From a phage, in NCBI GenBank assembly GCA_036252695.1, contig GCA_036252695.1_4122.1: 64,000 bases of DNA. One strand, 5' to 3'. A model generated the notes under the pieces. That model did no database searches and was not told the origin of the DNA. It was given only the letters and a program-made list of their open reading frames with translations. The position numbers were made by a program, and so were the translations under genes. Of this stretch, positions 1 to 53,437 are shown piece after piece (positions within the stretch are counted from its first letter, which is position 1; each line of letters begins with the position of its first letter).

Positions 1-33
1 CAAACGTCTTAATACTGTTCCGAAGGATGCACA

Positions 34-204
34 ATGAAAGAAGTAATTGGCTACAAATGTAAAAATTGTGGCAAAGATAAGGGTAAGCATTCAATACAAG
101 GGATGGCTTGTCCAAATCCAGGACGTGGAAATTTCAGAGGGTTCAGTACTGAAAAGTCTTACGAACCGGATCATACCAAACCTGTAATGGGTTATAAATT
201 ATGA
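34..204 (+). CDS. small Cys-rich (zinc-ribbon-like) protein, 56 aa
   Basis: ATG at 34 preceded by GAAGGA; CxxC plus second Cys pair (CKNCG...ACPNPG); stop overlaps next start (ATGA). Below the 60-aa ORF track cutoff. Confidence 0.35.
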   Translation: MKEVIGYKCKNCGKDKGKHSIQGMACPNPGRGNFRGFSTEKSYEPDHTKPVMGYKL

Positions 205-560
205 GTGATTATGTAGCATTTCTTCATCGCTTTGGAGAAGCTAAAGAAAAACATATTATCCGTATGCCATTATATGGTGAAAAAGACTGGTACAAAAGTA
301 CTGTCAGTGTAGGTGCATTTCGTGACCGTGAAGCTGGATTCTTTCTGGGTAAGCAACATGAACGAGAGGTACTTTGCTCACTTTGGCGTTTAGATGAATG
401 GGATAGTGATAACGTAAGAACTGCTGAATCAATGATGGCTATTGTTGGTATTGCGAACTATCAGCACCCATATGATCTATTACCTACATTTGAACATGCT
501 TCTTTGTTTGACTTTTACAAAGCAGTAGGGTATGATTATAAAAAGAAACGTTACGTTTAA
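201..560 (+). CDS. hypothetical protein
   Basis: 119-aa ORF, ATGA coupling to upstream small ORF; no recognisable motif. Confidence 0.5.
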   Translation: MSDYVAFLHRFGEAKEKHIIRMPLYGEKDWYKSTVSVGAFRDREAGFFLGKQHEREVLCSLWRLDEWDSDNVRTAESMMAIVGIANYQHPYDLLPTFEHASLFDFYKAVGYDYKKKRYV

Positions 561-564
561 CATC

Positions 565-596
565 AGTACTGCCATCGTGTGCAGTACTTTTTAATT
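565..596 (+). terminator. rho-independent terminator
   Basis: Inverted repeat AGTACTGC/GCAGTACT followed by TTTTAATT. Confidence 0.5.
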
Positions 597-606
597 GGAG
601 ATTACT

Positions 607-1221
607 ATGACTACATCGGAAAAGTACTGGTGGATTTTGGGTCATCCTAAATTCATAAACAAAGATATGGTTCCAGCTAGGATTGATATTGAACCTCATG
701 ATGTGTGTCCAATGACAAATCGAATTGAAGATTTCAAAGCATTGAATACAAAGACTCAATTTTGGGTAGAATTTCTTTCACCAATGTATATTGAGCAAGA
801 CGACGAATGGGTACAAGCACATGATTATCAATTGGATTGTGGTGGTGATACGTATGAAGAGGCCATTGATGAATTATACAAAAATGTTCTGAACACATAT
901 GGGGATTATACCCAACAGGAAGCAGATGATAAATTTCATAAAATACATTCATTCAATGCATCACAATCAATATATAATCCCGCTAAAACAGTTTGGGAGG
1001 AACGACACAGTTGGAGTTCATGTGTAATCGATGAAGAAACCAAAGAAAAAATCATCGATGACATAAAAAATTTAAAAAATACAATCCAAGCCTTGCGTGC
1101 ATTCATAAAGTCTTGTACAATAGGAGAACAGCAAGAGGCAAAGATACATTTGGAGAGTGAAGAATGTAAACTTTGGGTTCTAGAAAAATCACTTGAAAAG
1201 GGTATAGACTTAGACTTATGA
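607..1221 (+). CDS. hypothetical protein
   Basis: ORF track 595..1221; ATG at 607 follows GGAG with good spacing; no recognisable domain. Confidence 0.5.
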   Translation: MTTSEKYWWILGHPKFINKDMVPARIDIEPHDVCPMTNRIEDFKALNTKTQFWVEFLSPMYIEQDDEWVQAHDYQLDCGGDTYEEAIDELYKNVLNTYGDYTQQEADDKFHKIHSFNASQSIYNPAKTVWEERHSWSSCVIDEETKEKIIDDIKNLKNTIQALRAFIKSCTIGEQQEAKIHLESEECKLWVLEKSLEKGIDLDL

Positions 1222-1586
1222 ATAGTAAATTGGAGAAACTTGTTGAAGAATTACGCCGGATGCCACCTATTGAGCAAGTAGGGAACTACAAGCGGTATCG
1301 TGTGATTGCTCGTGCACTGGATAAAAAAGGTCGAGTACTGGCAACTCGCACAAATTCTTATACACAGACTCACCCAGTACAGAAGGGTTTCGCCATTCGT
1401 GCTGGGCGACCGCAAGGTGAGTTTCTTCATGCTGAAATTTCATGTTTACTGGCTGCTCGTGCTGATGTTCATACTTTACTGATTGCACGGATAAGTAAAG
1501 ATGGAATTCCTGTACCTGCCAAACCATGTGAAATTTGCACATTAGCAATTATGGAATACGGGGTTAAGGAAATTATCCACACATGA
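1218..1586 (+). CDS. small CDA-fold nucleotide deaminase (cytidine/dCMP deaminase-like zinc-binding motifs)
   Basis: HAE (HAEISCLL) and PCxxC (PCEICTLAI) motifs about 32 residues apart; ATGA start-stop overlap with upstream gene. Confidence 0.55.
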   Translation: MNSKLEKLVEELRRMPPIEQVGNYKRYRVIARALDKKGRVLATRTNSYTQTHPVQKGFAIRAGRPQGEFLHAEISCLLAARADVHTLLIARISKDGIPVPAKPCEICTLAIMEYGVKEIIHT

Positions 1587-1807
1587 AGAAAATCGAGCGT
1601 TATACAAACCATACTGTTGTAGTTGAAAATGATATATTTTATTATTATATTTTCAGACCTATACATTGTTGCCAAATAACAACATTCAATAGTGGAAGGT
1701 TTTATGACAAGAACTTTCACATTACTGAGTTAGCAAAATATTCCAGTACTGAACACTTTAGTAATCTAGTATATGTGTACTGTATACCAAACCCAAATAA
1801 TAAGTAG
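1583..1807 (+). CDS. hypothetical protein (doubtful)
   Basis: 74-aa ORF with low-complexity composition in an AT-rich stretch; may be non-coding leader. Confidence 0.2.
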   Translation: MKKIERYTNHTVVVENDIFYYYIFRPIHCCQITTFNSGRFYDKNFHITELAKYSSTEHFSNLVYVYCIPNPNNK

Positions 1808-1816
1808 GAGATTAAA

Positions 1817-2176
1817 ATGGCTAAAACTATTTCTTTAAAAAATGAAAATGTAGGACAACGCAAAGATGGTTTCTTTGGATTCTCATGGACAACACTATTC
1901 TTTGGACCATTCCCTGCATTGTTTCGTGGTGACTTTATTACGTTCATCGGTGCATTTGTAATTTACTTCATCCTCAACGCAGTGTCATTTTGGATTGTGG
2001 GTACAATTGCAATGGTCGTGTGGGCATTTCTTTACAATAAGTACTACACAGTGAATCTCATTAAGAATGGGTATAAATTCAATGGCACACATGAAGAAAA
2101 TGCTGAAGCTGCAATGGCTTTACAAATTGATTTGAATAAAAACAACACAGTTGATAAAAACAAAGATCCAGAATAA
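1817..2176 (+). CDS. small integral membrane protein
   Basis: Strong RBS AGGAG; long hydrophobic stretches consistent with 2-3 TM helices. Confidence 0.5.
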   Translation: MAKTISLKNENVGQRKDGFFGFSWTTLFFGPFPALFRGDFITFIGAFVIYFILNAVSFWIVGTIAMVVWAFLYNKYYTVNLIKNGYKFNGTHEENAEAAMALQIDLNKNNTVDKNKDPE

Positions 2177-2395
2177 ATGGAAAAATATGACATAATTTAC
2201 GATTATTATGGTAAGGCTTATATGAAGTGTGGGCGTTATGTTGAACTCTCTAATAGAGAATCAATAGATCCCCACACTCTTATAACAATTCATAATTCGT
2301 ACTATAAAAAAGTTACAATAGCTAATTTCGCTACATACGTGAATAATCCATTATTTCCTTACATTATTCAGTACTACTGTCGAGTTATAAAATAA
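2177..2395 (+). CDS. hypothetical protein
   Basis: 72-aa ORF immediately after upstream stop. Confidence 0.4.
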   Translation: MEKYDIIYDYYGKAYMKCGRYVELSNRESIDPHTLITIHNSYYKKVTIANFATYVNNPLFPYIIQYYCRVIK

Positions 2396-2405
2396 GGTAA
2401 AAAAA

Positions 2406-2816
2406 ATGTTAGCCGATGATTTTATGTCTCTAAGTACCAAGATATTTGATATATTAGGAGATGAAATAGATTTCCACCTAAATGATACAACTATACCGTT
2501 CGAAGATGGTGGTTATTTTTTTGCATTTGGTTATAAGTACAATGTTGATTTCTCAATTCCGATTCCTGATGGAAGTGATTATACATCATCAACATATTTT
2601 GAATTTCAGTTCAACGGACACAAAGAGCGTTTACTAACATATAGACGTAAAGGTAATTTCAGTAGACCAGAGATTATATTAATGGATATTGAAAAACGAA
2701 TAGAAATTGCAAAGAATAATCCATTCTTCAGTTCTTATGCGTTAAACCAACTTATTGAACTATTTGATGGCTATCCAGACAGAATACGAGGGTCGTTACG
2801 TATCAATGCAGAATGA
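2406..2816 (+). CDS. hypothetical protein
   Basis: 136-aa ORF with AAGG RBS. Confidence 0.5.
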   Translation: MLADDFMSLSTKIFDILGDEIDFHLNDTTIPFEDGGYFFAFGYKYNVDFSIPIPDGSDYTSSTYFEFQFNGHKERLLTYRRKGNFSRPEIILMDIEKRIEIAKNNPFFSSYALNQLIELFDGYPDRIRGSLRINAE

Positions 2817-2991
2817 AATCTTTAAAAAAGAATACGATGGTGAAAGTCTCTATGATATTCAGAGAGATGTGCATGAAGCCTTCGATTCAAGATTTAACCC
2901 ATTAGCTGAACAAATCCCACAAGATGAGTTTGGTTTTCAAGAAGGGACGTTCACAGTAACTATTACATGGAGTCCAGATGAGACTAGCTAA
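2755..2991 (+). CDS. hypothetical protein (start uncertain, possibly ATG at 2806)
   Basis: ORF overlaps end of upstream gene in another frame; followed by a terminator. Confidence 0.3.
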   Translation: MNYLMAIQTEYEGRYVSMQNEIFKKEYDGESLYDIQRDVHEAFDSRFNPLAEQIPQDEFGFQEGTFTVTITWSPDETS

Positions 2992-3093
2992 ACTTGTCAT
3001 AGGTTGCAGTGCACTTGCTGCATATATGCTTTTTTCCGCACCAACCAATGTATTACTGCTAATTTGGGCAGTTGTTATATTAGCAGTACTTTA

Positions 3094-3117
3094 AAAGCAC
3101 CCTTGTGGTGCTTTTTC
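3094..3117 (+). terminator. rho-independent terminator
   Basis: AGCACC / GGTGCT hairpin followed by TTTTT. Confidence 0.5.
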
Positions 3118-3254
3118 TATTTGTGCAAATAAAAAGCAATGTGACTTTTCCTTGATATAGGTCAAGAGAAATAACCTGTTCTGACGCTATAATGTTGTCT
3201 GGTGATATTAAATATCTTCACCCCCAGATGATTTCAAAATACAAGGAATGTACA

Positions 3255-5060
3255 ATGCAATTAGATAAATTATATACCGATGTAACAAATTTCCTAAATC
3301 AGAGTAATACTGATCTTACTAATGAAAACGCTAATAAAGATGCAAAATGCGTCAATACACATAGAGATTTACTAGCAGGTATTCTATCTAAGCATTATTC
3401 ACAAGATGTTATTCCCACCGAGTTAATGCAATGGCATAATGATGGATATGGTCATATTCATGATTTAGATTACTATATTAGCCCATTGACCAATTGTTGC
3501 TTGGTTAACTATCCTGATATGCTTAAAAACGGCTTCACTATTGGTTGTGCTAAAATTGAAGAACCAAAAAGTTTCAGTGTAGCTTGCACAGTACTGACAC
3601 AAATTGTCCAAGCTGTTGCCAGTTCCCAGTACGGTGGACAATCGTTGGCTCATATTGACGTTGGTCTTGAACCTTACGTCCAAAAGTCATGGGATAAGCT
3701 GTTAGAAAAACAAAAGAAATATAATCTAAGTGATGAGTTCATTGAAGAAGAATTACGAAAAGAAGTATACGATGGATGTCAAACATTACTTTACCAGACT
3801 AATTCAATGATTAGCACTAATGGACAAGCTGCATTCATTTCTCTTAGTTTAGGGCTTAATACTTCTAAATTTGGTAAATTAATCACTGAACAGTACTTAA
3901 AAGTTCATGAGAATGGTTTAGGTAAAGATAAGATTACTCCAGTGTTTCCTAAAGTAATTTTCTTTTTACAAGATGGTATAAACATGAATACCAATGATAG
4001 TAATTATGACCTTAAACAGTTAGCTATGCGTTGTGCATCAAAACGAATCTACCCAGACTTTGTTTCAGTTCCATTAAATCACAAAGTGACTGGAAGTAGT
4101 AGTACTGCTGTAACACCGATGGGCTGTCGTTCATTCTTAGGAAAATGGGAAGATTCAAATGGAAATGAACAATACAACGGTCGTTTCAATTTAGGCGTAG
4201 TTTCTATCAATTTACCTCTAATTGCTCTTGAGAGTGCTTCTGATGGAGAGTTTTTTGATAAGATAGACGAGCACATGAATATTGCATATCGTGCTCAGAT
4301 GAACCGTGTGGAGCGTTTAAAAGGCACTAAAGCGAAGCAGAATCCAATTTTGTTCATGGAAGGTGCATTAGCACGTTTAGGTGCAGAAGAAACCATTGAC
4401 AAGCTATTTTACAATGGTTATGCTAGTATTAGTATTGGTTATGTTGGTCTTGTTGAATGTTCAGAAATCCTCACTGGTTCTATCAGTAAGGAGTTTTGTA
4501 TGTCAGTACTGAATTATATGAAAGTAAAATGTGATGAGTTCAAAAAAGAAAGTAATATTGCTTTTAGTCTATATGGAACTCCAGCAGAGTCGCTTTGTTA
4601 TAAATTTGCACGTTGCATTGAAGCAAAATATCCTTCAGTACTAAAACGTGATTACATCACAAATTCCTTCCATCAACCAGTATGGGTAGAAAGTTCTCCA
4701 TTTGATAAATGGAGTTATGAAGAAGGGTTTGCTTACCTAAGTAACGGTGGAAACATCAGTTATGTTGAATCTCCAAACTTAGCAAACAACATTCAAGCAC
4801 TTGAAACATTAGTTAACTATGCGTACACTAAGATACCATATTTTGGTATTAACCAACCAGTTGACCATTGTTATGAATGTGGCTTCCAGGGTGAGTTCAG
4901 TGTAGATAAACATGGTTTCCACTGTCCGGTATGTGATAATCGTAATGAGAAGACAATCTCAGTGATTCGTCGTGTTTCTGGTTACTTGGGTAATCCTTCT
5001 TCGCGTGGATTCAATAAAGGCAAACAACAAGAGTGTTGTGAGCGTATTCAGCACAAATAA
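3255..5060 (+). CDS. nrdD: anaerobic ribonucleoside-triphosphate reductase (class III RNR)
   Basis: Collinear similarity to T4 NrdD (NENANKD near N-terminus, PMGCRSF, C-terminal glycine-radical motif RRVSGYLG, CxxC zinc ribbon). ORF track starts at 3192; ATG at 3255 has an AAGGAA RBS and matches the T4 N-terminus. Confidence 0.9.
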   Translation: MQLDKLYTDVTNFLNQSNTDLTNENANKDAKCVNTHRDLLAGILSKHYSQDVIPTELMQWHNDGYGHIHDLDYYISPLTNCCLVNYPDMLKNGFTIGCAKIEEPKSFSVACTVLTQIVQAVASSQYGGQSLAHIDVGLEPYVQKSWDKLLEKQKKYNLSDEFIEEELRKEVYDGCQTLLYQTNSMISTNGQAAFISLSLGLNTSKFGKLITEQYLKVHENGLGKDKITPVFPKVIFFLQDGINMNTNDSNYDLKQLAMRCASKRIYPDFVSVPLNHKVTGSSSTAVTPMGCRSFLGKWEDSNGNEQYNGRFNLGVVSINLPLIALESASDGEFFDKIDEHMNIAYRAQMNRVERLKGTKAKQNPILFMEGALARLGAEETIDKLFYNGYASISIGYVGLVECSEILTGSISKEFCMSVLNYMKVKCDEFKKESNIAFSLYGTPAESLCYKFARCIEAKYPSVLKRDYITNSFHQPVWVESSPFDKWSYEEGFAYLSNGGNISYVESPNLANNIQALETLVNYAYTKIPYFGINQPVDHCYECGFQGEFSVDKHGFHCPVCDNRNEKTISVIRRVSGYLGNPSSRGFNKGKQQECCERIQHK

Positions 5061-34596: not shown

Positions 34597-37260
34597 ATGG
34601 CAGGAGATCTACTCTCACCTGGCGTTTCCATTTCAGTAACTGATGAAAGTATGAGTACCGCTGCTGCTCCTGGCACTGTACCACTATTTGTAATCGCTAC
34701 TGCTGAAGACAAACTTGTCCCAGGAAGCAGTGCAATTGCTGCGGGAACTACTAAAGCAAACGCTGGAAAACTACAGCTTCTAACATCACAAAAAAGCTCA
34801 CTTGATACCTATGGTACACCAATTTTTCAAATGAATAACGGTTCTGTTGTTCAAGGTGATGAACTAAACGAATATGGCCTACATGCAGTATATTCTTATC
34901 TAGGCATTACTAACCGTGCATATGTAATTCGTGCTGATATCGATCTAGCACAACTAGCACCAAGTGCTGAAGCACCAACTGGCCCAGTATCCAATGGTAC
35001 TTTGTGGTTTGATACCGCACAATCACAAGTAGAAGCGTATGTAGCGAAGAAAGATAGTCCAAGCAGTTTTTATGATTGGCAACTTAAGCCAGTAACTATT
35101 GTAAGTGCTGAAGAAGTTGAAGATGTAAGTCTAGTAGGTTTAAATGTTGATGATTTAGTTCTACGTTACAAACCAAGCAATGGTCAGATGCTAATGTATA
35201 AACGTTCTGCTTCTGGGCTAGTGCAAATGGAAACTTATCTATCACCAATTAACAAAGTTCCAGTTGGCTCAACTGTAGAAAAAGGTAACATTTGGATTCG
35301 TGATGGTTACACCCAAAATGGTTCAAACTATTTTGGTACTCGTTTTGTTATTAAACGTTATGCATCCCTAACTCAAGTTTGGAATATTGTACCAGCATAT
35401 ACTGGTAATTCATTCCAAGAAATTGAAGCGAAAAGTGGTGTACTAAACAATAGTTATATCGCATCTCGTTTTGATGAAGATAGTAAGAGTTTCTCTTTCT
35501 ATATTCAAAGTGCAAAACTAACAACAATTAGTGCTCCTGCTTTGCCACTTGGTGAAACTATTATTGAACAAGCAGGTGCTGATAGTTATATGACTTTTGT
35601 TTATTTGAATAAATCAGTTAAAGTACTAGCAGTTCCACAAGGCGGTGTTATTAATACCCAAACTATCATCAATAATCTAAATGCAAATGCTGAAATTATT
35701 AACGATGGTTTTAAATTTAAACGTGAAACTAATGGTGGTTTAGTTGTTTCCAATACAAAAGGTTACAGTTTCAAAATCACACAAAGTGGTGATGATATTT
35801 TTGCTGAATCTGAACTACAAAAACTAACAGTAGATAGTAACAACTACTCTCTAATTAACGTGAATAACTTCCGTGTTAGTTATTCAGTACCACGTAGTGT
35901 AGCAAAAGAAGGAACTCTCTGGTATGATTTCGGGAACTCCGATAATCTAACTGTAACTATGTATGTTGCTGATGTTGCTAATGATGAATGGGATCTAGTA
36001 CAAGAAGAAAACAAATATGTACAAGTTGATGAACCAGCGGCTGACCGTTTAATTTGGGTTTGTCCTTTGTCTCAAGGCATTGATGGTTATGATTTCTATC
36101 GTAACGTTGATGGTGAATGGGTTAAACTTGACAGTACTGATCAAAGTACACTAAATGGTATGATTTTCCAAGACTTTAATTTCCCAAGCCAAGTTCCTGC
36201 TGCGGCATTGTATCAAAATGGTATGCTTGCAGTTGACCTAGGTAACACTGAAGGTGTTGTTAAGAAAATGGTTAATGGTCAATGGGAAGTTGTTAGTGGT
36301 GTAAGTCTTGATGGTGCTGGCCTATTTGGTCGTGCTGCACAACGTCAACTAGTAGTTGAAGCACTAGCTGCTGTTATTATTGGTAATGATGACATTCGTT
36401 CTGAATTTATTGATTTTAACCTAATTTGTGTACCTGGTTACGTTGAAACACTTGATGAATGTGTAACTTTAAACACTGATCGTAAAGAAACTGCATTTAT
36501 TGTTACTGACGTTCCAGCACGTTTGAATCCAACCGGAAACGGTAGTGCTGTACAACAATGGGCTACTAATGCTAACAATGCACCAAGCAACGGTTCAGTT
36601 GGTCGTACAACTGCTTATGATTATGCTGCTCAGTATATGGGTTGGTGTCTAAGTACTAACGTTGATGGTGAAGAAGTTGCAGTTCCTGGTAGTACTATTG
36701 CAATGCGTACATATGCATACAGTGATAGTGTTAGTTATGTATGGTATCCACCTGCTGGTACAACTCGTGGTGTTGTAACAAACGCTGCAAGTACTGGTTT
36801 TATCAACAGCGAAGGTGAATATCAACCAGTAGTATACAACCAAGGTCAACGTGACGTTATGTATACTAACAACATTAACCCAATTGCAATGCGTCCTAAC
36901 CGTGGATTGCTTGTTTATGGAGATAAAACTCTATCTGCTAATCAAACTTCTGCACTAAGTCGTGTTAACGTTGCTCGTTTAGTTGTTTATATTCGTCGTC
37001 AACTAGAAATTATTTCCGAACCATTCCTATTCCGTTTGAATACTCCAAGTACTCGTCAGGAATTTAGTGGTGTAGTTAATAGCTTCTTGGCTGAAATTGT
37101 TCAACAACAGGGTCTTTATAACTTCGCAGTGGTTTGTGATGAAAGTAACAACACCGCAGAGCGTATTGACCGTAATGAACTTTGGATGGATATTGCAATT
37201 CAACCAACTAAGAGTATTAACTTCATTTACGTACCAATCCGTATCGAGAAAACTCAATAA
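34597..37260 (+). CDS. contractile tail sheath protein (T4 gp18 homologue)
   Basis: N-terminal LLSPGV matches gp18 LLSPGI; C-terminus VCDESNNTAERIDRNEL...IQPTKSINFIYVP matches gp18 VCDTTNNTPSVIDRNEF...IQPARSINYITLN; 887 aa, GGAGGA RBS. Confidence 0.9.
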   Translation: MAGDLLSPGVSISVTDESMSTAAAPGTVPLFVIATAEDKLVPGSSAIAAGTTKANAGKLQLLTSQKSSLDTYGTPIFQMNNGSVVQGDELNEYGLHAVYSYLGITNRAYVIRADIDLAQLAPSAEAPTGPVSNGTLWFDTAQSQVEAYVAKKDSPSSFYDWQLKPVTIVSAEEVEDVSLVGLNVDDLVLRYKPSNGQMLMYKRSASGLVQMETYLSPINKVPVGSTVEKGNIWIRDGYTQNGSNYFGTRFVIKRYASLTQVWNIVPAYTGNSFQEIEAKSGVLNNSYIASRFDEDSKSFSFYIQSAKLTTISAPALPLGETIIEQAGADSYMTFVYLNKSVKVLAVPQGGVINTQTIINNLNANAEIINDGFKFKRETNGGLVVSNTKGYSFKITQSGDDIFAESELQKLTVDSNNYSLINVNNFRVSYSVPRSVAKEGTLWYDFGNSDNLTVTMYVADVANDEWDLVQEENKYVQVDEPAADRLIWVCPLSQGIDGYDFYRNVDGEWVKLDSTDQSTLNGMIFQDFNFPSQVPAAALYQNGMLAVDLGNTEGVVKKMVNGQWEVVSGVSLDGAGLFGRAAQRQLVVEALAAVIIGNDDIRSEFIDFNLICVPGYVETLDECVTLNTDRKETAFIVTDVPARLNPTGNGSAVQQWATNANNAPSNGSVGRTTAYDYAAQYMGWCLSTNVDGEEVAVPGSTIAMRTYAYSDSVSYVWYPPAGTTRGVVTNAASTGFINSEGEYQPVVYNQGQRDVMYTNNINPIAMRPNRGLLVYGDKTLSANQTSALSRVNVARLVVYIRRQLEIISEPFLFRLNTPSTRQEFSGVVNSFLAEIVQQQGLYNFAVVCDESNNTAERIDRNELWMDIAIQPTKSINFIYVPIRIEKTQ

Positions 37261-46072: not shown

Positions 46073-47398
46073 ATGACTACTCAAAACGATATCCTGAACG
46101 TTAAACTGACTCCAAAGAAAGCTAAAGAAGCAATGGCACTAGCTGACATGATTCAAGATAGCCTGATGATTTGGGGTAGCCCAGGTATCGGTAAGTCTGC
46201 AATCGCTCGTCAATACGCTGATGAAAATTACCCACTGCGTAAAGATAACGTAGCTAAAATCGAGTTCATGAAACAACAAATCGAAGCTGACCCTGAAAAT
46301 GCTGATCAGCTACGCCGTGAACTGGCTGCATTTGAAGCAAAACTAATCGACCAAGATACTAACTTTATCGATTTCCGTTTGTCTCAAATCGAACCAAGTG
46401 ACCTTCGCGGTATTCCAGTACCAGAGAAGCTTTTCCGTAAAACTGACGGTTCTCTTCTGAAAGAATCTGAGCTTGCCGAAGCAAAAGATTATGTAGCTGA
46501 AACTGCGGTAGTATGGGCTGCACCTAAAGTTCTGAAATTGTCCGAAGATTGGAAAGGTGTTATTCTGTTTGACGAAATTAACTCTGCAATGCCTATTGTT
46601 CAGGCAGCGTCTTATCAGCTAATCCTCGACCGTTGTGTTGGTGAGATGAAGCTACCTAAGACTGCACTGATTCTTGCAGCAGGTAACCGTGAAACTGATG
46701 GCGGTGTAACTTTCTCTCTTGCTACACCACTGCGTGACCGTATGACTCACATTGAGATGATTCCTTATCATCAAGATTGGATTAACGATTATGCGATTGC
46801 AAAACGTTTGAACCCAGCAACTGTTGCGTTCATCAACAACACTGGTTCTAAGTACTTTAACACACTTAGTCCACAAGATCCTTCTCACAGTGGTGGTACT
46901 TCTCCACGTTCATGGGAAGCAGTAGCACGCTACGAAGATCTCAAGAAAACTAAGACAATTGATAAAGAAGTGTTCCGTGCAATGATTGCTGGTCGTGTTG
47001 GTGAAGGTGTTGCAACTGAATACATTGAGTACGTTGAGAACGTTGCTAAATTACCAGATACTATGTCTATTCTGTCTGGTGAAATCAAAGAAATCGACGC
47101 AACGCTGGATATTTCTGCGAACTACTTTATCACTCTGAACTTGGTTTATAAAATTATCGACCTGTTCAATGAGAAGCAAGAACAACGTCTACCAGTGGAA
47201 GAATGGGGTAAACTGTGTAACAACTTCATCACCTTCCTAGACCATAACTTCTCTGCAACTCAAGCAGAACTGGCAGTACTGGCAATTCGTACCATCACGC
47301 TTCATAAGGTTGCGATTTCCATTAAAGATGTACCAGCGTTTAAAGATTTCATCGCTAAGTACTCTGATCTTGTACGTAAAGCACGCTCTCTTGGCTAA
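46073..47398 (+). CDS. AAA+ ATPase, MoxR-like
   Basis: Walker A GSPGIGKS, Walker B ILFDEIN, sensor AAGN; strong RBS; elevated G+C and CGT/CTG codon preference relative to neighbours. Confidence 0.8.
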   Translation: MTTQNDILNVKLTPKKAKEAMALADMIQDSLMIWGSPGIGKSAIARQYADENYPLRKDNVAKIEFMKQQIEADPENADQLRRELAAFEAKLIDQDTNFIDFRLSQIEPSDLRGIPVPEKLFRKTDGSLLKESELAEAKDYVAETAVVWAAPKVLKLSEDWKGVILFDEINSAMPIVQAASYQLILDRCVGEMKLPKTALILAAGNRETDGGVTFSLATPLRDRMTHIEMIPYHQDWINDYAIAKRLNPATVAFINNTGSKYFNTLSPQDPSHSGGTSPRSWEAVARYEDLKKTKTIDKEVFRAMIAGRVGEGVATEYIEYVENVAKLPDTMSILSGEIKEIDATLDISANYFITLNLVYKIIDLFNEKQEQRLPVEEWGKLCNNFITFLDHNFSATQAELAVLAIRTITLHKVAISIKDVPAFKDFIAKYSDLVRKARSLG

Positions 47399-47472: not shown

Positions 47473-48897
47473 ATGTCAGATAACAAATCTACTTCAAGAT
47501 TCAATGAAGTATCTCCGGCACTCCAGAAAGAATGTCAAGATCGTCTGGTTCTGGCTCGTACATCTTTGATGTTAACTGCACCATTCTTTGGTGTACTCGC
47601 TTCACGTTTACGTCCAGTTCCTAATAATACATGGTGTCGTACTCTAGCAGTTGATGGTAAACATCTATTCTACAACGTAGAATTTGTAATGGGTATTCAA
47701 GACCCATCTAAAAAGAAAGAATATGAAGAAGCTATTCGTGAAAAGCATCCTGAAGTTACAGACGAACAATTAAAAGAAATGACTGAAGGTTTGACTGATG
47801 AAAACCTTATTGCTGTAATTTGTCATGAAATTCTACACTGTGCTTACGATCACTTCCTTCGTCGTGGTATGCGTGATCCACAACGTTATAACCGTGCAGC
47901 GGATTATGCCATTAACCAAATCATCGTTCGTGAGAAAATTGGAAAAATCCAAAGTTCATGGTTGTATGATAAAAAATATGAAGGTATGACCGCAGAAGAG
48001 ATTTACATTCTTCTTGAAGAAGAAGAACAAAAAGAAGATGGTGAAGGTGAAGGTCAACCACAAAGTGGTGGCGGTGAAGGTGAAGGTAAAAATCGCGGTA
48101 CTTTTGGCGATATTAAAGATGGTAAGGGTAAACCAAAAGGTACTACCATTGACCAGCATGACGTTCCACAAGAAGGTCAAGAAGGTGGTTCAAGTGAACA
48201 GCAAAAACGTGATTATATGGATGATTTCAAAACAGCAATGATGAATGCTGCACGTGCAGGTGGTACACCAGCAGAAATCGCTCGTATGATTAACAACTTT
48301 AAAGAACCAAAGATTGACTGGCGTTCAAAACTTCAACGTACACTTCGTAGTTGGTTGAAGTCTGATGCAACGTATCAAAGTCCTTCTCGTCGTTCATGGG
48401 GTGCTGGTTTTGGTTCTAATGGTTCATTCTATGGTAATCCAATTTACCCAGGGATGAAACCAGATGATGATATTGATATTGCGATTGCACTAGATGCTTC
48501 TGGGTCTATTTCTGAAGATATGCTTCGTGATTTCATTAGTGAAGTTCTTGGCATCACTAAACAATTCAAACAGTTTAAGATTCGTATCATGACTTTTGAT
48601 ACTGAAGTTTATACTGTAAAGGATTACAAAACTGGCGAAGAACGTAAGATTCTGGAATATCCAGTAAAAGGTGGTGGTGGTACTGACTTTGAAGCAGTAT
48701 GGGTTCATATGAAGAACGACAACTACAAGCCTAAACAGCTTGTAATGTTTACTGATGGTGAACCGTGGCAGTCATGGGGTGATCCAAACTACTGTAAAAC
48801 ACTGTTCGTGATTCACAGTAACCCAAATAAAGTTGCACCATTTGGTGAGACTGTACACTACGAATATGAAGCTGATAAAAAGCGTCAACGTAGTTAA
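47473..48897 (+). CDS. VWA-domain protein with N-terminal HExxH metallopeptidase-like motif (partner of the AAA+ ATPase)
   Basis: HEILHCAYDH motif in N-terminal half; MIDAS-like DASGS (IALDASGSIS) in C-terminal half; Gly/Glu-rich linker. Confidence 0.75.
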   Translation: MSDNKSTSRFNEVSPALQKECQDRLVLARTSLMLTAPFFGVLASRLRPVPNNTWCRTLAVDGKHLFYNVEFVMGIQDPSKKKEYEEAIREKHPEVTDEQLKEMTEGLTDENLIAVICHEILHCAYDHFLRRGMRDPQRYNRAADYAINQIIVREKIGKIQSSWLYDKKYEGMTAEEIYILLEEEEQKEDGEGEGQPQSGGGEGEGKNRGTFGDIKDGKGKPKGTTIDQHDVPQEGQEGGSSEQQKRDYMDDFKTAMMNAARAGGTPAEIARMINNFKEPKIDWRSKLQRTLRSWLKSDATYQSPSRRSWGAGFGSNGSFYGNPIYPGMKPDDDIDIAIALDASGSISEDMLRDFISEVLGITKQFKQFKIRIMTFDTEVYTVKDYKTGEERKILEYPVKGGGGTDFEAVWVHMKNDNYKPKQLVMFTDGEPWQSWGDPNYCKTLFVIHSNPNKVAPFGETVHYEYEADKKRQRS

Positions 48898-48907
48898 GTA
48901 CTAAATA

Positions 48908-48940
48908 AAGAGAACGGAATTTTCCGTTCTCTTCTTTTAT
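48908..48940 (+). terminator. rho-independent terminator
   Basis: AAGAGAACGG / CCGTTCTCTT hairpin plus T-run. Confidence 0.55.
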
Positions 48941-48944
48941 AAGT

Positions 48945-48972
48945 GGGACAACTTATAAAAATATGATATAAT
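48945..48972 (+). promoter_or_regulatory. sigma70-like promoter (GTGGGACA-N16-TGATATAAT)
   Basis: Third copy of the GGGACA-N16-TATAAT architecture. Confidence 0.4.
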
Positions 48973-49006
48973 AGTTAATGTACCAATATACATGGAGAGT
49001 ATTAAA

Positions 49007-49252
49007 ATGGAACAAGAAAATAATCAAATTCAACTAACCCTTCTAGACCTAATCAATGCTGCAAAAATCATGGAAGCTGCTGTTGCACGAAACACCTTTA
49101 AAGTTGAAGAACTTGTTGAGGTTGCTCCAGTTGTATCTAAATTTGTTTCTTTTGCAAATGTAGCTCTTGAAGATATTAAAGCACAAGAAGATGCAGCTAA
49201 AGAAGAAGCTGAATCACAAGATAGTGAAACTCAAGAAGATAAAGGAGAATAA
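49007..49252 (+). CDS. hypothetical acidic protein
   Basis: ORF track 48992; ATG at 49007 follows GGAGAG. Confidence 0.45.
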   Translation: MEQENNQIQLTLLDLINAAKIMEAAVARNTFKVEELVEVAPVVSKFVSFANVALEDIKAQEDAAKEEAESQDSETQEDKGE

Positions 49253-49254
49253 TT

Positions 49255-49911
49255 ATGGCAGCTATTCGTCATGTTGGTGTAATGCGTAATACAGGTTCTC
49301 GTGTTTTTGTTGTTTGGCGTTCACTACCAGATGATCCTGAACACTGCCTTATCGTTTATCGTGATTCACTACCAGAAGCATATGTTCACGCAGTAACTGA
49401 TATTGTTATGGGTCATGGTCAATCTAATATTGATTTGTGGGAAGTAATGCATAAAATTGGTTATCTCGATGGACGCAAAATGCTAGATGTTCTACACAAC
49501 ATGCAGCATCTACGTCGCGTTCGTACTTGTGACATTGATATGCACACTGGTGGTAATAATAAAATTTCTCTTGATGTTCTAAACAAAGCATTAGATGAAA
49601 ATCAAGCGAAAGTACAAGAAGATGGTAAAGTAAAAGACTTTAACCCATTCAATCCACAAGAAGCGGACACTAAAGTAGAAGAAGCTACTATTGTAGAACA
49701 ACTTCTCACTGATGCACAAAAATATGAAAAACTGGCTAAAGAACATTATGAACGTGCATATAATTTAGAGCCAAGCTTGCGTCCGCAAACACAAGTTGTT
49801 GAACAACCGAAAGATAGTAAAACAATTTATCTAGAAATTCCAGAAGGTATTTCACAGACTAAAGCTATTGAGAAAGTAAAACAACTATTTGCAGAACGTA
49901 AAGCAAAATAA
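49255..49911 (+). CDS. hypothetical protein
   Basis: 218-aa ORF with AAGGAGA RBS. Confidence 0.5.
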   Translation: MAAIRHVGVMRNTGSRVFVVWRSLPDDPEHCLIVYRDSLPEAYVHAVTDIVMGHGQSNIDLWEVMHKIGYLDGRKMLDVLHNMQHLRRVRTCDIDMHTGGNNKISLDVLNKALDENQAKVQEDGKVKDFNPFNPQEADTKVEEATIVEQLLTDAQKYEKLAKEHYERAYNLEPSLRPQTQVVEQPKDSKTIYLEIPEGISQTKAIEKVKQLFAERKAK

Positions 49912-49914
49912 AAT

Positions 49915-50508
49915 ATGAAAAAGAATGAATTAGATGAAGCAATTAAAGGTTTATCTAATGTATGTTTTAGTGGCGGGGCAGCAGGTGCTGACCGCCTTTT
50001 TTCTATCTATGCAAAAAATAATGGATTTGAAGTTATTAATTTTTCATTCAAAGGTCATGAGCATAGTGTAGATGAAAGTACTATATTAGAAATACCATCC
50101 AATATTCTATCTGATATTTCTATATTAAATCAACTAAACATTGCATGTTACTCGTTGCAGCGAAAAGTACCAAAACCTGGTTCTTATGTTTACAACTTAC
50201 TTGCAAGGAATAGTTATCAGATACTTAATACAGAAAGAATATATTGTATTGCAAATATCACATCACCAACTAAGGTAAGTGGTGGTACTGCATGGGCAGT
50301 ACAGATGTATATGGATTCAGTTGAAAATCCTGAAATTTATTGTTATGATATGAATTCACGTTCAGTATTTTATTTCGATACAGTACTGAAAGAGTTCACA
50401 CAAACATTCGTCGTTCCAGCACCACATGGTAACTGGACTGGTATTGGTTCACGCAATGCCACCGAAAAACATATGGAACATTTTATTACATTTTTCAAGG
50501 AAGAATAA
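49915..50508 (+). CDS. DprA/Smf-like (SLOG-type Rossmann) protein, tentative
   Basis: GGAAGAD near N-terminus, LLARNSYQI and SGGTAWAVQMY resemble the DprA G.ARGID, FP.RNR and SGS..TA motifs; directly upstream of td with ATGA overlap. Confidence 0.4.
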   Translation: MKKNELDEAIKGLSNVCFSGGAAGADRLFSIYAKNNGFEVINFSFKGHEHSVDESTILEIPSNILSDISILNQLNIACYSLQRKVPKPGSYVYNLLARNSYQILNTERIYCIANITSPTKVSGGTAWAVQMYMDSVENPEIYCYDMNSRSVFYFDTVLKEFTQTFVVPAPHGNWTGIGSRNATEKHMEHFITFFKEE

Positions 50509-51437
50509 TGAAACAACTACAAGAACTATATCAAAAAATTCTAGATGAAGGCGTAGAAAGCGTTGACCGTACTGGTGTTGGAACAATCAAACTTATCGGT
50601 CAACAAATGCGTTTTGACCTTAAAGATGGTTTCCCAGCAGTGACGACAAAACGTCTAGCTTGGAAAGCAATGACTTCAGAATTACTATGGTTTATTGAAG
50701 GTTCCCATGATGAGCGTCGCCTTTGTGAAATTTTGCATGGAACTCGTGATACAGAAAAGAAAACTATTTGGACAGATAATTACCTAAATCAAGGCGTTGC
50801 TCTTGGTTATACTGATGGTGAGTTAGGTCCAGTGTATGGTAAGCAATGGCGTGAATGGGAAGATTATAAATTTAGTTCCAGTACTGAAGAAATTCAAGAA
50901 TTAAAAGATAAAGGATACAAAGTTATCGATTATACTGGTTCACATGGTGTTGTTATGAAACGTACAACTGACCAATTACAAGAACTAATCAAAGGTATAA
51001 AGTCCGACCCATATGGTCGTCGCCACATTCTAAGTGCATGGAACGTTGGTGAGCTTGATGATATGACGTTGCCACCTTGTCATAGCTTTGTGCAATTTTG
51101 TGTAGTACAAGGGAAACTAAGCTGCATTCTACATCAACGCTCCGCTGATCTATTTTTAGGAGTTCCATTTAATATCAGTAGTTACTCACTACTAACTCAT
51201 ATGATTGCACAAATTACTGGTTTAGATGTTGGTGAATTTATTTGGAATGGTGGTGATTGTCACATTTATAAAAACCACGTTGAACAAGTAAAAGAACAAC
51301 TACAGCGAAAACCTCGTGAATTACCTGAATTGTGGCTTGATCCTACAATTACTAATATTGAAGATTTCACAATGGATTCTTTCAAATTAGTGAATTACAA
51401 CCCAATGCCAACAATTAAAGCACCGATGGCTGTATAA
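50508..51437 (+). CDS. td: thymidylate synthase (ThyA-type)
   Basis: Canonical motifs DRTGVGT, GPVYGKQWR, LPPCH, QRSADLFLGVPFNISSYSLL; uninterrupted ORF. Confidence 0.9.
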   Translation: MKQLQELYQKILDEGVESVDRTGVGTIKLIGQQMRFDLKDGFPAVTTKRLAWKAMTSELLWFIEGSHDERRLCEILHGTRDTEKKTIWTDNYLNQGVALGYTDGELGPVYGKQWREWEDYKFSSSTEEIQELKDKGYKVIDYTGSHGVVMKRTTDQLQELIKGIKSDPYGRRHILSAWNVGELDDMTLPPCHSFVQFCVVQGKLSCILHQRSADLFLGVPFNISSYSLLTHMIAQITGLDVGEFIWNGGDCHIYKNHVEQVKEQLQRKPRELPELWLDPTITNIEDFTMDSFKLVNYNPMPTIKAPMAV

Positions 51438-51444
51438 ACGAAAA

Positions 51445-51471
51445 GGGAGAACATTAGTTCTCCCTTTTTTT
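51445..51471. terminator. bidirectional rho-independent terminator between convergent gene blocks
   Basis: GGGAGAAC / GTTCTCCC hairpin with flanking A-run and T7; lies between td (+) and the first minus-strand fibre gene. Confidence 0.55.
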
Positions 51472-51472
51472 A

Positions 51473-53437
51473 TTATCTAATTGTTACCAATGTTCTTCCG
51501 TCGAAACGTACATCAGGAGTTGAAGGTATACTAAACACTACGTTAGTGCCGTTAAACGTAACGCTATCGACCTCAACACGAGTATAGACACCAGGACTAA
51601 CCTGTTCCTGTATCTCTGCTGTGACGATGTTTGAGGCTGTTACAGTAAGGGTGTAGTAGTTACCACTTAATACCCAAGATGAAATTGTAAAAGCATCGGT
51701 TCTCACTGAACCTGAACCAATTGGAACCCATTGACCTTGAACTTTTTGCATTGAAGTACGCTCGGTATTGGAGTATGCAATCATACCATCAACGCCAACA
51801 GAGTTATCAATAGTAGCTAGTACTGGTAATTGGATACCATATCTATTAAAACGTGTTCTTATAGTTCCATTATCATAGATACTTACATCAGCATAATTAC
51901 CCATTGATAGTTTTAAATCAGAACTAACTAATTGGATTGTACTTTGATTAGTAGTACTTTCTAATGTAATTATACCATTAGCTAATAGATTTATATTTTT
52001 AAATTTATTAGTTGTTCCATTGAAATTAGTGTTTGCTGTAAACGTACTAACTCCATTAACTGTAATTGTATCAGATGCAGCATCGCCTAATGTAGTATTA
52101 CCTTGAATGTTCAAATTACCACTAGCAGTGATATTACTAGCTGATGTATCACCAGTCAATGTACTTGTACCATCAACCACAATATTACCATGAAACGCAC
52201 TTTCACCATTTTTAAATTCAACTTGTACTTTATTCATTGAACTAAATGAAATAATATTACTACTAGCACTTAGTCCAACATTAGTATTGGTTGCATTATC
52301 AAATCTTAGTACTGGGGTTGATGCTGGGGTTGAAGTTGTTTGGTATAATGTTAATGTTGAATTATTAATTCTAATACGTTCAGTTCCAGCAGTACTGAAA
52401 CCAATTGCATCATCTGCTGGATGAAACATACCAGTATTAGCGTCTGACCATTTTGCAGGATCATTACCTGGGTTATTGGTTGGATCAAATGGATTGTTAT
52501 TAAATGTCAATGCTGGTGCTGCTGCACTACCATAGACCACACCAAAACGCCCTGAGCCGCTTGTTCCATCATTATACATGGAATCACCAGTTCTACGTAA
52601 ACACTCAATCACAACGTTATCTATGGATGTTTGAACGGTCCCTGCGTTTGTCCTAAATTGACGATGATTTGCAATCATTACAGTATTGTCATATAATACT
52701 GAAGCAGCGGAAATGCTTGTTCTTGACTGGCGTAGACGTATGTTTTTATCTTCAGTTATAATAATCCAATCACCATCTGATAGTGCGGTTTGGTTCATTG
52801 GAACACCTGAAGCAAATGGTTTGGTTAAGTCAGCATCTGTTGCTAAATTTTTAAGACCATCATGACCAGTACTAGGAATAGATGCAGGAATAATTCTAGC
52901 GAAAGCGTATGTTACTAGTTTAGCACCAGATATATTTGGATTAGAGTCAACATAATATAAAATTTCAATCCAATTACCTTGTCCAGTTGGATTTGTAGGT
53001 GTAAATGTAACAGGACTTGTTTGTGGATTATTTGCTTCATAATGGGCTTGTGCGGCATCCATAATACCACGAACAACATAATAATCACCATTTAGTGATG
53101 CTGCTGGTGCTGGTAGTGGTGTTTGTGCTAAAGGTGGATCAATATCATCTGGGATAGGATTGTATGTACCAACAAACTGTAAACCACTAGTTACTGAATC
53201 TGGTAATTGGGAAGTAAGAAGTTTACCATTTGCATCTAAGTTTGCAAAGCGGCGATATGCCATAGTACCATCTTCAAAATCCAGAACACCTTCAAATGAT
53301 TTCCATTCCTTATTGTATCTAATCATCCCTGATCTTATTACATCAGCGGTTTCTTTTGATGGTGCTTTCGGTAACTCTAAAAAAGATTTACTATCAATAA
53401 TTACACCACCATCACCTCTAATTCGATTTATACTCAT
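51473..53437 (-). CDS. tail fibre protein (654 aa)
   Basis: GAGGAA RBS; Thr/Ser/Asn/Gly-rich with beta-rich repeats; part of the minus-strand fibre cluster. Confidence 0.65.
   Translation of the reverse strand: MSINRIRGDGGVIIDSKSFLELPKAPSKETADVIRSGMIRYNKEWKSFEGVLDFEDGTMAYRRFANLDANGKLLTSQLPDSVTSGLQFVGTYNPIPDDIDPPLAQTPLPAPAASLNGDYYVVRGIMDAAQAHYEANNPQTSPVTFTPTNPTGQGNWIEILYYVDSNPNISGAKLVTYAFARIIPASIPSTGHDGLKNLATDADLTKPFASGVPMNQTALSDGDWIIITEDKNIRLRQSRTSISAASVLYDNTVMIANHRQFRTNAGTVQTSIDNVVIECLRRTGDSMYNDGTSGSGRFGVVYGSAAAPALTFNNNPFDPTNNPGNDPAKWSDANTGMFHPADDAIGFSTAGTERIRINNSTLTLYQTTSTPASTPVLRFDNATNTNVGLSASSNIISFSSMNKVQVEFKNGESAFHGNIVVDGTSTLTGDTSASNITASGNLNIQGNTTLGDAASDTITVNGVSTFTANTNFNGTTNKFKNINLLANGIITLESTTNQSTIQLVSSDLKLSMGNYADVSIYDNGTIRTRFNRYGIQLPVLATIDNSVGVDGMIAYSNTERTSMQKVQGQWVPIGSGSVRTDAFTISSWVLSGNYYTLTVTASNIVTAEIQEQVSPGVYTRVEVDSVTFNGTNVVFSIPSTPDVRFDGRTLVTIR

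Follow-up and report, generated by a model that had tools for sequence, protein, structure and literature searches.

The 64,000-nt window analyzed here (the whole of the stretch taken from contig GCA_036252695.1_4122.1, phage assembly GCA_036252695.1) carries at positions 49915–50508, on the + strand, an ATG-initiated open reading frame (ORF) of 197 amino acids (aa; 22 kDa) that corresponds to gp567 of Escherichia phage 121Q. We report that its product belongs to a distinct family of the SLOG superfamily, and that this family is paired in phage genomes with enzymes handling deoxynucleoside monophosphates (dNMPs). The region around the ORF (48900–51500) is 99.5% identical to 121Q, a 121Q/PBECO4-type jumbo coliphage (Asteriusvirus). 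As the first-pass annotation had observed, the ORF lies directly upstream of the thymidylate synthase gene td and its stop overlaps the td start; the final A of the TAA (50506–50508) is also the first base of the td ATG (50508–50510). The td gene (50508–51437, + strand, 309 aa) is recognized by Pfam PF00303 (E = 7.7e-102) and by the NCBIfam equivalog NF002497 (342.9 bits against a cut-off of 327). By inspection, a Shine–Dalgarno-like run for td, AAGGAAG (50497–50503, + strand), falls within the last codons of the SLOG ORF, the layout that would be expected of translational coupling. The SLOG ORF is a real gene rather than a chance reading frame, kept in 86 phage records and represented in 2,775 clusters at 50% identity (E ≤ 1e-3).

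Two genes whose functions are unassigned precede the SLOG gene on the + strand, orf86 (48992–49252, 86 aa, phrog_13789) and orf218 (49255–49911, 218 aa, phrog_15894). Together with the SLOG gene and td they form a tightly packed predicted four-gene unit, of which they are the first and second members and which would end after td. The unit is bracketed on its 5′ side by a terminator-like hairpin that ends a DUF2201 metallopeptidase/VWA gene (48908–48933, + strand) and by a sigma-70-like promoter match (GGGACA-16-TATAAT with an upstream TG; 48945–48972, + strand), and on its 3′ side by a second terminator-like hairpin (13-bp stem plus T run; 51440–51469, + strand) directly 3′ of td, between convergent genes; all three are consensus matches only. 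The cluster makes no use of the T4-type late promoter TATAAATA, an octamer strongly under-represented across the whole window, which has 2 copies where shuffles predict 10.5 ± 3.0; it therefore gives no guide to expression timing. The td product is longer than its 264–266-position model, with the extra ~45 residues apparently near aa 97–150, where the NCBIfam alignments are split.

The fold of the SLOG protein was predicted with AlphaFold2 from 65 aligned members of a set of 106 gathered homologs, and the resulting model (pLDDT 97.2, pTM 0.92) shows a three-layer alpha/beta Rossmannoid fold whose nearest structural relatives are SLOG members. Structure prediction thus supports the SLOG-fold call of the first-pass annotation: a Rossmann-like fold is present and a dihydrofolate reductase (DHFR) fold is absent. 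The top Foldseek match is PDB 3imk, a “putative molybdenum carrier protein” from Syntrophus aciditrophicus, which we take to be the structure behind Pfam PF12694 (cpYpsA), the circularly permuted YpsA SLOG family. The phage protein shares with 3imk the circularly permuted YpsA-type SLOG fold characteristic of cpYpsA structures, but it is longer (197 vs. 158 aa), adding a three-strand beta meander (aa 141–164) and an N-terminal helix. As 3imk is without an assigned function, the match provides no functional information. Among PDB sequences there was no meaningful match to the protein, to the family profile or to a fused homolog, and NCBIfam and PADLOC scans of the SLOG protein returned zero matches.

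Residue conservation, counted over 251 family sequences, bears out two features typical of the SLOG superfamily: glycine-rich nucleotide-binding loops that follow core strands, and a GGx motif placed ahead of the helix that comes after a later strand. The three motifs singled out in the first-pass annotation—GGAAGAD (aa 20–26), ARN (aa 97–99), and SGGT (aa 122–125)—are all present and lie on invariant or near-invariant columns. Specifically, G20, G24 and D26 of the SGGAxGAD segment (aa 19–26) are each found in 251/251 sequences; in LLxRNxxQ, R98 is likewise universal (251/251), with N99 in 241/251 (96%) and Q102 in 98%; and in GGTAWA (aa 123–128), T125 occurs in 251/251, G123 and G124 in 250/251, W127 in 97% and A128 in at least 96%. 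The C-terminal TGIGSR (GIGSR at aa 176–180) contributes an invariant G178 and R180 (97%). Position 130 is mostly glutamine (Q in 195 sequences, or 78%; E in 17, or 7%; A in 9; T in 6). The conserved loops and arginines are of the type that binds the phosphate and ribose of nucleotides in other SLOG proteins; pI and net charge gave no discrimination between DNA binding and nucleotide binding.

The order of these motifs sets the family apart from DprA. In DprA/Smf (as read from the E. coli Smf sequence) the order is GSR, SGxAxGxD, RN, SGS/T, whereas in the phage protein the phosphate-binding GSR strand (aa 178–180) is C-terminal to every other motif. When the last ~30 residues of ten diverse members were shifted to the N-terminus and searched with the Pfam DprA model (PF02481), six of the ten rotated sequences matched across the artificial junction (best E = 2.2e-5), against 6/65 for native sequences (best E = 6e-3), though rotated and native matches all fell below the Pfam threshold (best of any kind, 26.0 vs. 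29.6 bits). The motif order indicates that the protein is circularly permuted relative to DprA, an arrangement that fits with 3imk as best structural neighbor. The protein also differs from DprA in that the 197-aa single-domain model contains neither a SAM nor a winged-helix domain (weak evidence, these domains being non-universal in DprA) and in that the third DNA-binding arginine (HpDprA R170) has no obvious counterpart.

Nor do other SLOG families accommodate it. The profile searches proposed in the first-pass annotation, against DprA, LOG, other SLOG families and DHFR, left all Pfam thresholds unmet. The protein falls firmly within PHROG 768, which carries the name “DprA-like DNA recombination-mediator protein”; the match (aa 4–161 against positions 23–181 of the 191-position profile) has E = 1.3e-26 and 94.3 bits and takes in most of the profile. 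For cpYpsA, sequence similarity contrasts with the structural resemblance: the window protein was unmatched by PF12694, and three fused homologs reached 16.5–19.5 bits, at most 19.5 against a threshold of 26.2. The sole Pfam match of the window protein is YAcAr/DUF2493 (PF10686; aa 6–44, E = 5e-4, 20.2 vs. 28.2 bits); this model is matched by 28/65 members, every one sub-threshold (best E = 1.2e-4), and the matches span only the SGGAxGAD strand–loop–helix of a 66-position model. Some GenBank records label orthologs DUF2493. The LOG/PpnN hallmark PGGxGTxxE is replaced in the phage family by xGGTAWAxQ, the phage fold, unlike that of LOG, is circularly permuted, and the equivalent of the LOG catalytic Glu is not conserved, position 130 being mostly Q (an equivalence drawn by motif inspection, not structural superposition). 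When the family alignment was compared with the individual PpnN and Smf sequences of E. coli, hhalign probabilities stayed below 1%, and hidden Markov models of the native and rotated alignments gave negative bit scores against the same two proteins. With no significant PpnN or Smf alignment, residue-level mapping to LOG or DprA lacks a statistical basis, and motif spacing is illustrative only. The family is therefore a distinct one in the DprA/YpsA branch of the SLOG superfamily, neither DprA proper nor LOG. Of the DprA/Smf likeness first proposed, the motif types and the PHROG 768 match stand, but DprA membership does not, given the sub-threshold score, the permuted order and the lack of extra domains. 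RefSeq carries the DprA-like name on 121Q, RaK2, CBB and others, as annotation only.

Gene neighborhoods were compared in 79 IMG/VR loci, reduced to 55 by dereplication at 80% identity. The td gene neighbors the SLOG gene in 7/55 loci, all Rak2-like; the two genes abut in RaK2, and a ~110-aa ORF lies between them in GAP32/CBB-type relatives. Among the loci examined outside the Rak2-like clade, td was not a neighbor. Genetic linkage to td, which the first-pass annotation had suggested following across related phages, thus holds in this phage and in RaK2 as a clade-specific trait but breaks down in loci outside Rak2-like phages. The recurrent neighbor is instead a dNMP kinase of the T4 gp1 type, which Pfam DNMK recognizes at 52.5 and 53.6 bits (cut-off 27.1). 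It lies within ±4 genes in 27/55 loci and immediately upstream on the same strand in 20/55, commonly with a 4-nt overlap; by phmmer, it is found within 5 kb in 32/55 loci, and either DNMK or td in 39/55. The pair is kept across at least four surrounding arrangements (e.g., tail sheath on either strand, a PTH2-like or adaptor neighbor, reversed pair order). Coupling to td is clade-specific and pairing with dNMP kinase is general.

The window itself has a T4 gp1-type dNMP kinase (33876–34502, + strand; Pfam DNMK, 44.8 vs. 27.1 bits) followed directly by the tail sheath gene (34597–37260, + strand). Atu_ph07-like phages have the order DNMK–SLOG–sheath; in the window that SLOG slot is empty, and the SLOG gene sits 15 kb away beside td. 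A subgroup of homologs of ~304 aa (P0084, P0088, P0093, P0096; Phosso L005:3983–4897) occurs in Atu_ph07-like huge phages directly 3′ of the dNMP kinase and has a conserved C-terminal extension of ~100 aa (IIYVP...GGWATV) with no Pfam match.

Other enzymes of nucleotide metabolism appear more irregularly. On five extra Pfam-labelled contigs the neighbors include dCMP deaminase, an adenylosuccinate-synthetase-like (PurA-like) protein, PRTase_3, HAD, His_Phos_1, NAMPT/NMNAT-Nudix and KptA. The dCMP deaminase, PurA-like, His_Phos_1, PRTase_3, HAD and NAD-salvage neighbors were absent within 5 kb of the SLOG gene across the 79 IMG/VR loci, so we regard them as sporadic rather than as a general association. 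In Cr30 the SLOG gene adjoins gp46/47, and in two Bacteroidales loci an ADP-ribosylglycohydrolase gene lies ~700 nt upstream of it. Eleven Flavobacteriaceae chromosomal loci (Flavobacterium, Myroides, Paenimyroides; L097–L107) share a block of MiaB (divergent), SLOG, a WYL/WCX regulator and DNA topoisomerase I; the whole MiaB-to-topA block is present in ten, the other (L098) being a 2-kb contig covering SLOG to topA only. This arrangement resembles the dprA–topA adjacency of Firmicutes. Literature searches, including ones aimed at the SLOG–dNMP kinase pairing, found no paper on the pairing and no experiment on the family.

The family is large and appears to be overwhelmingly viral, as far as sequence surveys tell. 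The 2,775 clusters came from searching 1.84 billion cluster representatives with a family profile; 730 of them reach E ≤ 1e-30, and most are standalone proteins of 175–210 aa; scanning 185,579 species genomes with a single peptide pattern found only 13 loci. Copies are also embedded in far larger proteins: in what is annotated as the virion RNA polymerase of Pylas, an N4-like phage (residues 984–1156, 168 bits), toward the C-terminal end of gp38 (~4,300 aa) of the crAss-like phage cr113_1 (159 bits), and in several metagenomic proteins of 1,700–4,050 aa. These copies are full-length with all invariant motifs intact. In a 2,942-aa metagenomic giant, a NADAR domain directly follows the SLOG domain, and another homolog is a fusion with a His_Phos_1 phosphatase. 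When the giant host proteins were scanned with PHROG and Pfam, the SLOG domain was all that was detected, apart from NADAR in the 2,942-aa protein, and among 250 representatives there were zero DNMK–SLOG fusions and zero Walker A motifs. Within the final 1,595 codons of the cr113_1 gp38 frame (L006, positions 1–4786) there are 19 in-frame code-11 stops, including one in the SLOG domain, a pattern that would be consistent with stop-codon recoding.

We tentatively favor, at a probability of roughly 40%, a nucleoside-monophosphate-binding protein that serves as an accessory or processing factor in phage dNMP metabolism, its ligand being a free (d)NMP. The conserved site would bind a 5′-phosphorylated (deoxy)ribosyl unit, with phosphate contacts from the two invariant arginines, sugar contacts from the glycine loop together with D26, and base contacts from W127. 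Since the protein is co-produced with an enzyme that handles dNMPs (td in this phage, dNMP kinase in most others), the ligand would most likely be a free (deoxy)nucleoside monophosphate, a reading that follows from the predominance of small-molecule nucleotide enzymes among neighbors and fusions. Within the phage DNA-precursor pathway the protein could act by either of two routes: it might bind dNMPs and serve td or dNMP kinase in an accessory or regulatory capacity, or it might be a nucleotide-processing enzyme (e.g., an N-glycosidase) with a chemistry unlike that of LOG. We weight a non-catalytic binder slightly higher because the family conserves no acidic residue in the place of the LOG catalytic Glu.

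Several observations weigh against this proposal. The family members and their nearest structural neighbor, 3imk, are all without assigned function. DNMK sits in a conserved T4-like structural block, so that its adjacency could in part be inherited synteny rather than the product of selection, and a DNMK–SLOG fusion is absent among the 250 representatives. The motifs (GSR, GxD, RN, SG[GS]T) are closer to those of DprA than of LOG, and the DprA arginines that seem to correspond to those of the phage family contact single-stranded DNA (ssDNA). Some contexts are DNA-centered (i.e., Cr30 gp46/47, Flavobacteriaceae WYL–topA, the N4-like virion RNA polymerase), and the NADAR fusion and ADP-ribosylglycohydrolase neighbor would point to ADP-ribose chemistry. 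The occupation by Q130 of the place of the LOG catalytic Glu in 78% of members, as aligned by motif, argues against a LOG-type hydrolase in particular.

A more far-reaching form of the dNMP proposal, which we consider unlikely, would make the protein an unrecognized component of phage deoxynucleotide metabolism: a stoichiometric partner of gp1-type dNMP kinase and td that binds or processes a specific (d)NMP (e.g., as a dNMP N-glycosidase whose chemistry is not that of LOG, or as an allosteric or channelling subunit) and that is also delivered in virion RNA polymerases and giant virion proteins.

The best-surviving alternative, though one we hold doubtful, is a DprA-like ssDNA-binding module, i.e., a minimal recombination mediator or ssDNA adaptor that, for instance, replaces T4 UvsY or tethers precursor enzymes to forks, with the GSR and RN arginines gripping the backbone as in DprA and ShosA. 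Such a role is in keeping with the PHROG 768 and RefSeq names, with motifs of DprA/Smf order and type (GSR, SGxAxGxD, RN, SG[GS]T), and with the better matching of rotated than native sequences to Pfam DprA (6/10 vs. 6/65). R52 and R143 of HpDprA, and R139 and R234 of ShosA, are ssDNA-binding arginines (PMC12961424), and R180 and R98 are the motif-level counterparts of HpDprA R52 and R143. The same Cr30 gp46/47, Flavobacteriaceae WYL–topA (11 loci) and N4-like virion RNA polymerase contexts fit an ssDNA role, as do BFVD structural matches to helicase-containing phage proteins, and a role in ssDNA binding or recombination was proposed for jumbo-phage DprA-like proteins by Iyer et al. (2021; PMC7824862). 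A recombination-mediator label sits uneasily, however, with a permuted structure nearest to 3imk and with the gene context.

An anti-defense role, in which the protein is a sponge or cleaver of NAD-derived immune signals (cADPR isomers, other ADP-ribose derivatives), also seems unlikely to us. It was predicted, as prediction only, for viral YpsA-clade SLOG domains (Iyer et al., 2022; PMC9503650). In the Thoeris defense system, 3′cADPR is reported to activate the SLOG domain of the effector ThsA. The anti-defense role would fit with the NADAR domain after the SLOG domain in the 2,942-aa giant, the ADP-ribosylglycohydrolase ~700 nt upstream in the two Bacteroidales loci, and the NAMPT, NMNAT-Nudix (NAD salvage) and KptA neighbors on some phage contigs. 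The copies in the virion RNA polymerase and in the giant crAss-like protein would moreover deliver the domain at the start of infection, if these proteins are ejected. The sporadic occurrence of the NAD-salvage neighbors was noted above.

The idea of a noncanonical DHFR or folate enzyme at the position of T4 frd has nothing in its favor but positional analogy with T4 frd–td and, against the SLOG fold, the lack of a Pfam DHFR match and a separate frd in relatives, has practically no chance of being correct. T4 frd likewise lies immediately upstream of td, but it has no sequence or fold likeness to the phage SLOG protein; no DHFR appears among the structural matches, and PF00186 does not match the SLOG protein, which bears out the earlier remark that the protein does not resemble DHFR. 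A DHFR (CBB_313, CBB gp313) was reported for the Rak2-like group (PMC5259590). With that protein as tblastn query, frd was located, among the matches listed, ~97 kb from td in RaK2 and ~106 kb from it in ph0011, a close Asteriusvirus relative whose SLOG protein is 94% identical to that of the window. By analogy with these RaK2 and Asteriusvirus relatives, 121Q would be expected to encode a DHFR as well. Replacement of DHFR by the SLOG protein was accordingly rejected on the basis of the fold and of the normal DHFR elsewhere in relatives. In RaK2 (NC_019526.1, ~134984–135511), K64-1 and Muenster, the DHFR is annotated beside a “Mom-like DNA modification enzyme,” a neighbor that may hint at DNA modification in RaK2-type Klebsiella phages.

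Public annotation already contains the fold call, RefSeq and PHROGs naming the protein DprA-like, and published surveys cover the SLOG domains of jumbo phages (PMC7824862, PMC9503650). New here are the permuted topology, the 3imk-type neighbor and the failure of the protein, at the level of sequence and motifs, to qualify as DprA, cpYpsA, YAcAr or LOG, together with how large and how restricted to viruses the family is, the clade-specific td as opposed to general dNMP-kinase pairing, and the copies in a virion RNA polymerase and giant proteins. Phage annotations are now spreading a “DNA recombination mediator” label that derives from annotation rather than from experiment. Should the pairing reflect function, phage DNA-precursor synthesis would gain a new player in this family; should the protein prove to bind ssDNA or to sponge up signals, the interest would shift to its occurrence within virion RNA polymerases.

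Phage phAPEC6 (MK817115.1) encodes a 197-aa protein 100% identical to that of the window, and its annotation splits the SLOG ORF into gp261c and gp260c (L092, positions 1520–1657 and 1897–2094). Mass spectrometry of phAPEC6 virions detected three peptides of thymidylate synthase (gp259c), one of the orf218 homolog (gp262c) and six of an N4 gp24-like ATPase (gp265c; PMC7247149, Table 1). As the ORF was split, the full protein was missing from the mass spectrometry database, and its absence from the phAPEC6 proteome is uninformative. The td product in virions recalls old reports in which td and frd proteins were said to be present in T4 baseplates.

Upstream of the four-gene unit, an AAA ATPase gene (N4 gp24-like; 46073–47398) precedes a gene at 47473–48897 whose orthologs in 121Q, RaK2 and CBB are called “HNH endonuclease” in RefSeq. 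Pfam finds in the latter a DUF2201_N putative metallopeptidase domain and a VWA-like domain (N4 gp25-like), and on this domain content the HNH label looks wrong.
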